From a virus (lineage: Duplodnaviria > Caudoviricetes): DNA of 36,178 bases. Shown here piece by piece: positions 1 through 36,178 of the stretch (position 1 is the first letter of the stretch; each line of letters starts with the position of its first letter). The notes beneath the pieces are model-generated. The model was not told the origin of the DNA. It saw only the letters and a program-made list of their open reading frames with translations, and did not search any database. Location of the stretch: IMG/VR virus record IMGVR_UViG_3300036794_000132, positions 1-36,178 of that record. The stretch is one strand, 5' to 3'. The position numbers and the translations under genes are program-made.

Positions 1-276
1 TTAATTCGGTACATTACGTTTTTCATTTGGGTTCTTAGTATAATAATCATTGTAGCTATCGGCTTGTTTCTGTGTAATTAACCCACCGGAGACAAGTTTC
101 CCTAAGCTAGGACTATCCTGTTTATCAAGTTGATAAAGTTCGGCTTGACCTTCGACAACTTTAACAACCGCTGTTTGACCCGTATTTTGGATATTCTTCT
201 TTTCTTTAGACAAATTTGGGACAAACAATAAAAGTAAGACACTGATAATAAGTAAGACGACAAGCATTTCAATCAA
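1..276 (-). pseudogene. comGC: ComGC competence major pseudopilin, 5'-truncated by prophage integration
   Basis: LIEMLVVLLIISVLLLLFVPNL is a type IV pilin N-terminal helix. The basic leader and the (G/A)F-T cleavage site are missing: upstream in-frame codons read R-N-L-L-S after a TAA at 292-294. Confidence 0.9.
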
Positions 277-28587: not shown

Positions 28588-28878
28588 TTAGTTTTTGAGT
28601 GGTGGAGCTGGAATTAACTCAAAGTGATCATTAACTCGCACCTTTTTTCCATTTTTAATTTCCATGTGCCAAGCGAACAAGCGATTTGTTACCTCGAGAC
28701 GTGATAACTTTGTTAAATCACAAATAAATTTAACTGGGTCTGTTCGCAAATTGTTCTGTTCCCGCAATTGTTTCCAGCGTTCGTAGTGTTCAACAGTAAC
28801 CCCAGAACACACTCGACTAGCTCGCTCCAGATAGTAATCTCTGAGTACTTCTGAAAAACTAATTATTTCTTCATCCAT
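28588..28878 (-). CDS. Hypothetical protein following the replication initiator
   Basis: Overlaps the initiator stop, has RBS. Confidence 0.7.
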   Translation of the reverse strand: MDEEIISFSEVLRDYYLERASRVCSGVTVEHYERWKQLREQNNLRTDPVKFICDLTKLSRLEVTNRLFAWHMEIKNGKKVRVNDHFELIPAPPLKN

Positions 28879-29797
28879 TAGCTAATCCTTTCTCTCTAAC
28901 AAGCCGATATATTTCATTTTGACTCATTCCTGTTGTATCAATGCCTGCTCGAATGAGCTTGGCTTCGTCCGACCAATCAGGAACTTTCTTTCCTGCTCTA
29001 GGTTGTGATTTTATATTCGTGGATTTGGATTTCTTCCGTTCAAAGGCAGCACTCTCTGCCATTGCATCTTCAAGTGTTTTAATACCATTCTTATCCCAAT
29101 AGCTAAGGATGTTTAACGCACTTTTAAATGTTTTACTTTGTCTAACTGCTCTTTTCATTGCTTCAAGCGTTAAATCAAAACCATAATCTAAAACAGAATA
29201 TTTTAAATCGTCGTAGATAAGAGGTGAGATACTCCCGAAGTTTCCCTCGTAAAATTTTATTAATTGATCAAAATTTGAGTCATCACTACTATTATTTTCT
29301 TTACTCTGATTTACTTTACTTTCCTTTACTTTACTTTGTTGATTATCATGTGAATTTATCGGGTTATCAGATTCACTATTCGAATTATTGGAGGGTTTAT
29401 TCTCCGGAAACTCCTCTTTGATTAAGTAAATGTCGGAAATGACTATTTTCTTCCTCTTTTTCGCTGCTTCTTGATATCTACTTTGAATACCTCTTGAAGT
29501 AAGAATATTGTATTTTTCGAATTTCTCTTTATTAAAAAACCCAACTTGTACAGCTTTATTAACTATTTCCTTAACTAGACTTTCTTCAATACCAACTTCA
29601 TCAGCAACTAAAAATATTGTGTCTTCGTCCCAGTCAAAGTAATAACCGGTATCTTGGTAAATATTGCATAGTAAGCAAAGTAGCACCTCAACAGTAGCCG
29701 GTCCACAAGCTCGTTTTATTTTTCTAATTTTTATATCTTTCAAAAAATTTATATCAAGCGGGAAATAATCAAGTCCTTGTTTAAGCGGTCTTGCCAT
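28871..29797 (-). CDS. Replisome organiser / replication initiator (DUF4373-like N-terminus, DnaD-like C-terminus)
   Basis: MARPLKQGLDYFPLD, LTSRGIQ, QSKVKESK linker, FYEGNFG...ILSYWDKNGIKT. Confidence 0.9.
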   Translation of the reverse strand: MARPLKQGLDYFPLDINFLKDIKIRKIKRACGPATVEVLLCLLCNIYQDTGYYFDWDEDTIFLVADEVGIEESLVKEIVNKAVQVGFFNKEKFEKYNILTSRGIQSRYQEAAKKRKKIVISDIYLIKEEFPENKPSNNSNSESDNPINSHDNQQSKVKESKVNQSKENNSSDDSNFDQLIKFYEGNFGSISPLIYDDLKYSVLDYGFDLTLEAMKRAVRQSKTFKSALNILSYWDKNGIKTLEDAMAESAAFERKKSKSTNIKSQPRAGKKVPDWSDEAKLIRAGIDTTGMSQNEIYRLVREKGLANG

Positions 29798-29833
29798 TCT
29801 TAATTCCTCTTGTTTTATTTTATTTCCTTATAA

Positions 29834-30055
29834 ACAATAGGTTCTGCTGTTTTGCCCCGAGGGAATCTTACTACATGCAGCGACTTACATGTCCTTCCTG
29901 CACAAAGCCTATTGTGTGATGCTGATCCATTTAATATTCAGATAAAACTATGACTTTCTAACGTGTTTCAATGACAAAATACGATTTTCTGTTATTACCG
30001 TCTTATTACTGAACAAATGAATCTACGGTGCTTTTAATGTGGTTCCGAACACATT
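29834..30055 (-). ncRNA. Candidate ~220-nt structured RNA between recT and the replication initiator
   Basis: No ORF of 60 aa or more. At least seven nested helices, many with G-U pairs only on the minus strand (see findings). Confidence 0.7.
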
Positions 30056-30058
30056 ATT

Positions 30059-30865
30059 TTATAATTCTAAATCAAGTACCTCGGGTTCTCCTTGAGGTTC
30101 TTGATAATTTTCAGAAGCTACTTGATCATTGATAATCTCATTTTCTTCGATTTGTTTAGAATCTTCCACAGCTTCTAAAACCAAATCATCTGTTACTGGA
30201 GTAGCATCTTTTGGTGTTGCTGATTCGTTATCTGCCACAATTGCTTGCTGCATTTCTGTCGATAATGGAGCGTAAGTACTAAGCATTGCTTTTAATACCG
30301 TTTTGGTTGCCATTGCATCAAAATCTGTTTGCCATGGGCTTGATGATCTATTGAATGATTTTGAAAATCGTTTGCCGTGGGCAGTAACTTTTTCTTTGTC
30401 CCAGTAAATAATTTTTCTGAATCCATTCGCAAGCTCCATACTAGCGAAATATCCTGCGATTTCGACCCCTTGTGGCATTGAAAAATCAATCTCTAGTTCT
30501 TCAAACAAACTGTCATATTTAATAAATTGATTTTCATAGACCGGGCCAGCATTCAGTTTTGTAACTTGTCCACTTCTAATTGCAAGCTGGATAAGCCCTT
30601 TATATCCAATTTGAAACTGTGCTTCTCTTCCATAAGGGATGACATAAGCAAAGCCCAAGCTCGGCTCAATGGGTAGATCAAGTGTTGCAGCTTTCATTGC
30701 TGCTGTCATGACACTATTTGAATCTACATTTTTTAAATTTGTAGAACCCACTAAACTAAGAAGGCTTCCCACAAATCCGTTAGTTTTTTTGCCTAATACT
30801 TCTTCGAATTTTCTTTTTGCAGCATCACTTTTGAGTACTGTTTGTGTTGGTGTTAAATTAGCCAT
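30059..30865 (-). CDS. recT: RecT/Red-beta family single-strand annealing protein
   Basis: AATLDLPIEPSLGFAYVIPY, AQFQIGYKGLIQLAIRSG, PWQTDFDAMATKTVLK. Confidence 0.93.
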   Translation of the reverse strand: MANLTPTQTVLKSDAAKRKFEEVLGKKTNGFVGSLLSLVGSTNLKNVDSNSVMTAAMKAATLDLPIEPSLGFAYVIPYGREAQFQIGYKGLIQLAIRSGQVTKLNAGPVYENQFIKYDSLFEELEIDFSMPQGVEIAGYFASMELANGFRKIIYWDKEKVTAHGKRFSKSFNRSSSPWQTDFDAMATKTVLKAMLSTYAPLSTEMQQAIVADNESATPKDATPVTDDLVLEAVEDSKQIEENEIINDQVASENYQEPQGEPEVLDLEL

Positions 30866-32597: not shown

Positions 32598-32626
32598 ATT
32601 ATATACCATTAAAAAGTATATGTCAA
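32598..32626 (-). promoter_or_regulatory. Lytic promoter with overlapping operator
   Basis: TTGACA-17-TATAAT. Operator ATACCATTAAAAAGTAT (32603-32619) occupies the spacer. Confidence 0.9.
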
Positions 32627-34732: not shown

Positions 34733-36178
34733 ATGAAGAGAGTGGCAATCTATGTTCGAGTCTCAACTCTCAATCAAGCTGAGGAAGGTTATTCAATTTC
34801 TGAACAAACCGACAAATTAAAAGCATATTGCGTTGCAAAGGGCTGGGCTGTTGCTGAAATATACACCGATGCAGGATTCACTGGTTCAAATATTGATAGA
34901 CCCGGGATGCAGCAACTTATAAATGATATATCAGTACAAAAATTTGACACAGTACTTATTTACAAATTAGATCGACTATCTCGGAGCGTTCGTGACACTC
35001 TTTACCTTGCAAAAGATGTATTTGCAAAAAATAATATTGACTTTGTATCATTAAGTGAAAACATAGATACATCTTCTGCAATGGGTGGTTTATTCCTAAC
35101 AATATTGTCAGCAATATCTGAATTTGAGCGTGAAACGATCAAAGAAAGAATGCAGCTCGGGAAATTAGGCCGTGCAAAATCTGGAAAATCTATGATGTGG
35201 TCTAGAACAGCTTTCGGTTATTTGCATAATACTGATACGGGAGTTCTTGAGATTGAGCCATTACAAGCAGAGGTTGTAAAACAAATCTTCCAAGAATATC
35301 TAAATGGCATGTCCATAACTAAACTACGAGATAAATTAAATTCAGAAGGGCACACTGGAAAAGATAAGCCTTGGTCATATAGAGCACTAAGAGCGACACT
35401 TGCTAATCCTGTTTATACTGGCAAAGTTAAATATAACAATCAAATATTTGACGGACTACACCAAGCGATAATAAGCCCTGAATTATTCCAAGCTGTACAA
35501 TCCGAGTTAGAAATTAGACAGAAGGAAGCATATCAGAAAAATAATAATCCGCGACCATTTCAGTCAAAATATATTTTATCTGGAATTGCAAAATGCGGCT
35601 ATTGTAAAACACCACTCCAAGTAATACTGGGGTCTGTTCGAAAAGATGGATCTAGAGATATTAAATATCAATGCAAAAATAGATTTCCCCGGAAAACTAA
35701 AGGGGTAACCATATATAATGACAATAAAAAATGTGATTCCGGCTTTTATTATATGAGTGATATTGAAGCGGAAGTTATTGACCAGATTTCTCTTCTACAG
35801 TTAAATAACGGTGCTTTAGAAAATCTAATATCTATAAACTCTGAACCGGTTATTGATACAACTGAGTTCGAAAAACAACTGATAAATATCGATAACAAAA
35901 TAAAAAGATTATCCGACCTATACATTAACGATATGATTTCTCTTGATGAAATGAAGCAAAGAAGTGAGAACTTGAAAAAAGACAGGGATGCTTTAAAAGT
36001 CAAAATAACATCATCTAATAAAACCAGCACCACTGATCGACTTAAAGCCGCAAGAAAGTTGATTGGGAATAAGCCTATTGAAAGCTTAAGCTATGAGCAA
36101 CAGAAGAATATCATCAATCGAATAATTAGTCGCGTATATGTTACAGCTGAGACTGTTGATATTACATGGAGCCTATAA
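34733..36178 (+). CDS. int: Large serine recombinase (integrase)
   Basis: YVRVST catalytic Ser, KLDRLSR, FERETIKER, NPVYTG, zinc ribbon CGYC...C...C, coiled coil. Confidence 0.97.
   Translation: MKRVAIYVRVSTLNQAEEGYSISEQTDKLKAYCVAKGWAVAEIYTDAGFTGSNIDRPGMQQLINDISVQKFDTVLIYKLDRLSRSVRDTLYLAKDVFAKNNIDFVSLSENIDTSSAMGGLFLTILSAISEFERETIKERMQLGKLGRAKSGKSMMWSRTAFGYLHNTDTGVLEIEPLQAEVVKQIFQEYLNGMSITKLRDKLNSEGHTGKDKPWSYRALRATLANPVYTGKVKYNNQIFDGLHQAIISPELFQAVQSELEIRQKEAYQKNNNPRPFQSKYILSGIAKCGYCKTPLQVILGSVRKDGSRDIKYQCKNRFPRKTKGVTIYNDNKKCDSGFYYMSDIEAEVIDQISLLQLNNGALENLISINSEPVIDTTEFEKQLINIDNKIKRLSDLYINDMISLDEMKQRSENLKKDRDALKVKITSSNKTSTTDRLKAARKLIGNKPIESLSYEQQKNIINRIISRVYVTAETVDITWSL

Follow-up and report, generated by a model that had tools for sequence, protein, structure and literature searches.

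A candidate phage RNA complementary to the start of host rpsF alternates with ssb genes in phages of Lactococcus

What does a phage that lacks a gene for the single-strand binding protein SSB carry in the place where such a gene often lies? We addressed this question in a stretch of DNA of 36,178 nt (the window), a prophage of the Lactococcus garvieae group. A first-pass annotation, made from the sequence of the window alone, had pointed out a gap of about 260 nt without a long ORF on the minus strand between recT and the replication initiator gene. This gap was confirmed at 261 nt within the following neighbourhood:

29798 to 30058, minus strand: ORF-free gap (261 nt) between recT and the initiator gene
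30059 to 30865, minus strand: gene for a RecT-family annealing protein (phrog_148, PF03837), with its stop 4 nt before the RNA module
28871 to 29797, minus strand: gene for the replication initiator with a DnaD-like C-terminus (phrog_2562)

The same annotation saw neither ssb nor a DnaC-like loader in this phage, and our searches likewise gave no SSB for the window, while the 12 and 16 ORFs scanned did not include a DnaC-like loader. Its remark that the gap takes the place often occupied by ssb, in a phage without this gene, turned out to be the key to the finding. Among 50,697 phage records the gap matched only the L. garvieae phages Bacchus and PLgT-1. The left end of the window is a host fragment with 94% identity to genome G523, which we take to be comGC-like; a Pfam search of this flank gave no match. 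The prophage, which encodes a large serine integrase, is inserted in this presumed comGC-like competence gene (window 1-276 and 34733-36178).

The first-pass annotation described the gap as a single ornate RNA of three domains (D1, D2 and D3). The helices that it quoted are present in the sequence and agree with the MFE fold, but the stability of the structure did not rise above chance (z -0.22 for the whole gap, or -0.2 rounded; -1.7 for D2, -0.8 for D3 and -0.9 for D1). Nor is the RNA a single unit. The gap consists of two separately inherited modules, D1+D2 (module 1) and D3 (module 2): D1+D2 was present at nine viral loci, each time directly 5' of D3, and at every locus where D3 follows an ssb gene, D1+D2 is absent. 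The two modules comprise the following elements:

30023 to 30054, minus strand: 5' pseudoknot of module 1, formed by D1 and the AGCACC stretch (32 nt; covariation)
30053-30050 with 30041-30038, minus strand: pseudoknot stem 1
30047-30046 with 30027-30026, minus strand: pseudoknot stem 2, with an A-rich linker and UAG
29924 to 30023, minus strand: carrier helix (D2) with an antisense guide in its 5' arm and apex
29834 to 29915, minus strand: module 2 (D3), a three-way junction (covariation)
29915-29908 with 29841-29834, minus strand: D3 P1
29904-29902 with 29892-29890, minus strand: D3 P2, around a purine-rich loop
29881-29878 with 29849-29846, minus strand: D3 P3, with a variable apex and a conserved AAGUC linker

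D1 had been read as a hairpin; its helix stands, not on its own but as stem 1 of the pseudoknot. Pairing in the pseudoknot was kept in 63 of 63 cells in nine sequences, well above slid controls, and four of the seven pairs showed double changes, which fell in both stems, i.e. the crossing stems of an H-type pseudoknot covary. In the lactis variants stem 2 is longer and shows compensatory changes of its own. H-type pseudoknots such as preQ1-I aptamers, type III antitoxin RNAs and exonuclease-blocking RNAs have a short stem 1, an A-rich loop 3 and a compact stem 2, and module 1 shares these features; unlike these examples it comes without an Rfam match, repeats or a downstream metabolic gene. 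Covariation was seen in the pseudoknot and D3 but not in the D2 helix, where the 32 consensus pairs showed three one-sided changes and no double change. The apical hairpin proposed for D2 is missing from the consensus fold, this stretch being the antisense guide described below. The antisense stretch was unchanged in all 11 distinct garvieae-type copies, and a divergent D2 contig carried nine gaps and most of its substitutions in the 3' half and none in 29969-30007. The proposed AGCA(C/U)C repeat is a coincidence: the first copy lies within the pseudoknot and varies (AGCAGC, AGCAAC), and the second is absent from ssb alleles. As to expression, no promoter or terminator consensus was found in the gap, and the sole strong consensus promoter on the minus strand lies at 32626. 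A contig of 172 nt covers 29895-30059 in one transcriptome; since such contigs have neither strand nor ends and break where alleles diverge, we do not count it as evidence for a discrete RNA.

The place of D3 is taken in L. lactis P335-type phages by a related motif, B (85 loci), whose carriers among 63 Lactococcus records include r1t, TP901-1, ul36.k1, BK5-T and bIL309. Motif B is preceded by ssb, by a 100-nt element A or by the rarer variants E and F. We scored 120 loci for an antisense module or an SSB tail upstream of the D3/B core, which was parsable in 118. In this Lactococcus slot 66 loci had the antisense module only, 49 had ssb only, none had both, two had neither (primase-type phages) and one was too short. 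The loci are related and partly duplicated and the counts not independent, and we therefore place no p-value weight on the exclusion. As far as sequence comparison can tell, its strength is that three SSB families, several recombinase types and two genera all show it. The three SSB families that alternate in the slot are unrelated (that of PLgT-1 being an SSB by annotation), and the content of the slot is independent of recombinase type. Gene order is recT, gap, initiator without ssb in r1t, and sak, ssb, motif B, rep in TP901-1; in PLgT-1, D3 occurs by itself and is flanked by ssb and an HNH gene. In six-frame searches of 46 records, none of the 32 module-bearing contigs (the window, eight further records with D1+D2, 21 with A, one with E and one with F; three of the eight D1+D2 contigs are less than 90% complete) matched any of the three SSB families, nor was an acidic-LPF tail seen in any of them. 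All 13 ssb controls matched, as they had to by construction, the profiles having been built from such proteins. This alternation suggests that on balance D1+D2 replaces the ssb gene in these phages.

Because of the exclusion with ssb we examined the host ssb operon, which has the order rpsF-ssb-rpsR in G523, as a possible target, and found extended complementarity to its first cistron:

29968 to 29984, minus strand: perfect 17-nt antisense to the host rpsF start, from 3 nt before the AUG to +14
29985 to 30014, minus strand: imperfect antisense extension over rpsF codons 6-15 (duplex -36.8 kcal/mol, z -7.7)

With the extension the antisense totals about 35 nt. The duplex was equalled by none of 300 shuffles, and the controls (D3, recT and ssb 3' ends) gave z-scores of -0.3 to 0.4 against rpsF; motif B against a non-cognate host gave -3.4. 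When 1.3 kb of the operon was scanned for duplexes in five genomes of the host genus, the rpsF start was the best site for D1+D2 in three and for element A in the remaining two. It also headed the 12 BLAST matches in the whole G523 genome (E 0.0058) and was the top match in G511 and G533; element A alone had a weak genome-wide match (15 nt, E 0.8). The complementarity tracks changes in the target. Host rpsF genes differ at codon 2 (ACA, ACU or GCU) and codon 11 (CGU or CGC), and D2 from garvieae paired best with ACA/CGU hosts, element A from lactis with ACU/CGC hosts and the streptococcal element L043 with GCU hosts, so that garvieae, lactis and L043-type streptococcal elements mirror the codons of their hosts at the level of sequence. 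Among 67 distinct elements, 66 pair within codons 2-5, 45 reach the AUG, 43 cover +31 to +34 and none covers the Shine-Dalgarno sequence (SD). About one third leave the AUG unpaired and could open the start instead of blocking it. From these comparisons rpsF is very probably the target of module 1. A pairing of the lactis loop with the CC bulge of the leader was dropped, as codons 10-13 pair better. In the host mRNA the rpsF start codon is itself predicted to lie in a helix, formed with +39 to +45 or the leader bulge (L543-L545, L559-L563), its predicted unpaired probability being 0.06-0.34.

The pseudoknot is common to Lactococcus and streptococcal phages. A search with a pseudoknot-only pattern and model, blind to the antisense, fetched 107 loci, of which 29 were not pseudoknots and 78 were true. 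Downstream of 72 of these 78 pseudoknots there was an rpsF duplex of -22 kcal/mol or lower (a threshold of our own; shuffles gave about -13 +/- 3, from shorter queries), and no ssb was found in the flanks (43 loci with 2 kb on either side). Named carriers include SM1, SpSL1 and 315.3, and by eye the streptococcal members end in terminator-like hairpins. Among 39 records examined from 49 recT loci, mostly streptococcal, nine had the pseudoknot without PF00436, nine had PF00436 without the pseudoknot and 21 had neither. The module is therefore not required by every ssb-less phage. Of these 21 records (L044-L059, L065, L071-L075), five combined another type of 5' structure with an rpsF antisense of 10-15 nt and the others showed nothing clear; L044-L059 and L065 possibly represent a second family. 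E-values of the pseudoknot model (R2) were miscalibrated, with 133 and 137 of 151 genomes "matching", and only scores above about 27 bits were followed; at this level no pseudoknot was found outside Streptococcaceae among the searched genomes. A streptococcal AUG-antisense pattern (120 loci) gave no new member among the matches listed. Two pairs of pseudoknot copies lie close together (G153:C12:108442 and 111449; G534:C2:114540 and 115459, the latter L695). L695 has a pseudoknot without rpsF antisense, and the fold may also serve other RNAs.

The mechanism that we propose starts from complementarity, codon mirroring, pseudoknot covariation and ssb exclusion, all of which can be read from the sequences. 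D1+D2 would, on the better part of this evidence, be an sRNA that blocks translation of S6, lifts the feedback by S6:S18 and so makes more host SSB available to phage replication. The RNA would be cut from the early lytic transcript, as the gap lacks a promoter or terminator consensus, and the pseudoknot would shield its 5' end. Pairing over codons 1-5 would stop rpsF initiation or invite RNase III, free S6:S18 would fall and the operon mRNA would escape repression. Host ssb has its own SD (partly paired in L561) and would be translated more, yielding more SSB per message. S6:S18 is described to bind the rpsF leader (PMC3895269, PMC3854524), and its excess to lower native operon mRNA about 4.5-fold in E. 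coli (PMC4647458). The regulation is known from E. coli and the binding from B. subtilis, and their use in Lactococcus would follow by extension. Staphylococcal phages are reported to lose 100-500-fold in titre without the phage SSB; without its ssb, phage 80alpha fell from 1.3e10 to 4.0e7 in a host whose SsbA is 79% identical (PMC5499656). Loss of a phage SSB is costly, and therefore something must replace it. The authors' own reading is specificity for the cognate SSB and not quantity. We consider it quite probable that the net effect on host SSB is an increase. The wider reading, that a widespread phage RNA interchangeable with three unrelated SSBs breaks the S6:S18 loop and lets the second cistron overproduce SSB, has in our view slightly better than an even chance.

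Blocking the first cistron could also lower SSB, via coupling or decay. The same RNA and target might then silence the rpsF operon, lowering host SSB or starving ribosome assembly of S6, and a lowered SSB would make annealing easier for the phage recombinase. Repressive sRNAs usually pair in this way, over codons 1-5, and messages whose translation is blocked are often degraded as a whole (PMC4647458). Silencing would however leave the exclusion with ssb unexplained, as less host SSB, or host shut-off, should be no less useful to phages that encode an SSB themselves, and the module is also present in SM1, where no recombinase is annotated within the 10 kb examined. We regard silencing as unlikely, though worth keeping in mind beside the preferred increase in SSB.

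A reading closer to the first-pass annotation, which had listed a cis-regulator of the initiator, a ribozyme and a trans-acting RNA tied to replication among its options, is that the gap in its entirety forms a single cis-acting RNA (attenuator, processing site or ribozyme) and controls expression of the initiator. It draws on D3, which lies 36 nt upstream of the initiator start and has a conserved core of fixed length with a weak U-rich tail in most members. P1, P2 and P3 of D3 covary (P1 and P3 with 96% of cells paired and 11 pairs with double changes, in an alignment of two main clades), and the 3-bp P2 is kept in 35 of 36 distinct cores, in a register that replaced our first one. The inner pairs ACAUGUA/UGCAUGU and UUUGU/GCAGA drawn earlier are impossible in most homologues, which form P1, the 3-bp P2 and GCUG/CAGC instead. 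Against one cis-acting RNA stand the separate inheritance of D1+D2 and D3 and the several unrelated genes that D3 precedes: it is also found 5' of HNH or HTH genes and 3' of a primase module, and the streptococcal module lies far from initiators. Host complementarity would be unaccounted for, and neither a ribozyme nor a riboswitch of Rfam matched (for D3, no known ribozyme core at E up to 10), which leaves the ribozyme option without support. We consider this reading improbable for the gap as a whole; it may still hold for D3 alone. The trans-acting option is the one that gained support, for D1+D2.

For D3 itself we tentatively favour, at somewhat below even confidence, a boundary recognised by a protein or nuclease that would define where the ssb message or sRNA ends and where the following message begins; the remaining share goes to an attenuator, a separate sRNA or a ribozyme. 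The ssb alleles join D3 at about 29915, and its 3' junction varies (AA, CG, UG, AG or AGAA). The D3 core was found at 16 viral loci, with one copy per phage in five of five records tested. Model R1 matched five genomes strongly and one weakly among 151 Streptococcaceae genomes and five of 20 genomes of the host genus. Three weak matches in 151 Lactobacillales genomes lay within coding sequence and were set aside as chance, so that D3/B was found in Lactococcus-type phages only among the genomes searched. D3 showed no pairing with rpsF and only chance-level genome matches and was discarded as an antisense RNA. Also discarded were a match of motif B to pfl mRNA (23 of 25 nt, E 0.015), which B variants break, and an extra 2-bp pseudoknot in D3, broken in L407. 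Motif B may resemble a 16S rRNA helix. Loose-pattern scans of genomes (120 loci) and metagenome contigs (125 loci) gave nearly all chance matches, with L227, L407 and L408 genuine.

A DNA element, either a single-strand priming or primosome-assembly site or homology for recombination with host rpsF, is very improbable. Single-strand priming and primosome sites are about the size of the gap element, which lies near a replication gene and could stand in for an SSB-dependent step. Yet relative to phage transcription the match is antisense in every case, it is divided into two with segments looped out, and it is freely rearranged; three of its four single interruptions are G-U and none is A-C, albeit in a small number, and the prophage integrates in the presumed comGC-like gene, not in rpsF. 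The sequence evidence points to RNA pairing rather than to a single-strand initiation site. A decayed ssb gene or ORF remnant, suggested by the shared slot and by an 11-nt word common to the 3' part of some garvieae-type ssb genes, is hardly credible given that there is no ORF and no SSB HMM match, that the pseudoknot covaries across two genera and that the antisense is invariant in the 11 garvieae-type copies.

By analogy, PreS (LPR1) of phage lambda appears to be the nearest known case. It is likewise a phage RNA that pairs with the mRNA of a host replication gene and aids phage replication; it activates dnaN initiation directly, depends on Hfq and has a poly-U tail (10.1101/2024.10.31.621285). 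Module 1 differs in its target, which is rpsF and not dnaN: it pairs at the start of a ribosomal-protein cistron upstream of ssb, with an indirect effect via autoregulation proposed, has a pseudoknot at its 5' end and is exchanged for a protein gene in other phages. These hosts are not known to encode Hfq. The S6:S18-binding rpsF leader belongs to the same operon, and stem 1 of the phage pseudoknot resembles the 5' hairpin of host rpsF leaders. Host leaders carry a CC bulge before the SD, whereas the phage RNA pairs with sequence 3' of the operator and, by inspection, has no unpaired CC(R) beside an SD-containing helix like that described for these leaders (PMC3854524). The phage RNA is likely a saboteur of the S6:S18 circuit and not a copy. 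The ssb genes of P335 phages (TP901-1 orf12, PLgT-1 orf53) occupy the same slot directly 5' of a D3-type motif, but module 1 is non-coding, has no general ssDNA binding and would act via a host protein.

The Rfam search that had been suggested for the gap returned no family of Rfam 15 at the gathering threshold (E up to 10 for gap searches); Rfam also failed on four host rpsF leaders (L543-L546). We found no published description of this RNA in a literature coverage that excludes most subscription papers. The transcriptome of L. lactis MG1363 lists 28 unnamed prophage sRNAs (PMC4829306). The letters of neither motif occur in its supplement, a search that a listing by coordinates would escape. 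Module 1, with no Rfam family and no description found, is likely undescribed. The gap RNA is real and likely functional, and the earlier proposal of a functional, previously undescribed non-coding RNA holds, with a structure that was partly wrong and with the two-module layout, the pseudoknot and the host target all missed.

If the proposed increase in host SSB is true, these phages would replicate without making phage SSB, a known trigger of several defence systems. This would account for the replication of many dairy and streptococcal phages that have no ssb gene, provide an example of an RNA taking the place of a protein in a modular slot of phage genomes, and identify the autoregulation of ribosomal proteins as a point that viruses can exploit. 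Classic models are available, as r1t carries the RNA and TP901-1 carries ssb, which would bring within reach whether S6:S18 limits SSB in Firmicutes and whether a dropped phage SSB evades SSB-sensing defences.

Several minor observations were made at these loci. Recombinases that precede the RNA module often have acidic C-termini like SSB tails (..EELPLL, ..EELPLF, ..VLDLEL; window 30059-30100, L001, L109, L135). In L002 (3905-4075), L005 and L015 two hairpins and an ORF of 30 codons stand in place of motif B, which may mark a second slot open to either RNA or protein. Later in the P335 early operon (TP901-1 orf16-orf17) there is a second pseudoknot-like motif (L318:4344-4377, L484:11081-11114, L531:16011-16044). 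The chance matches in metagenome contigs included repeated sites that we take to be attC-like (L334-L336, L345-L348; L209 excluded). The window further encodes an Abi_2 (PF07751) gene on the minus strand (386-1387) that has a promoter-like site of its own and a short leader rich in hairpins (1395-1455), which presumably fit an AbiF-like toxin with an RNA antitoxin.
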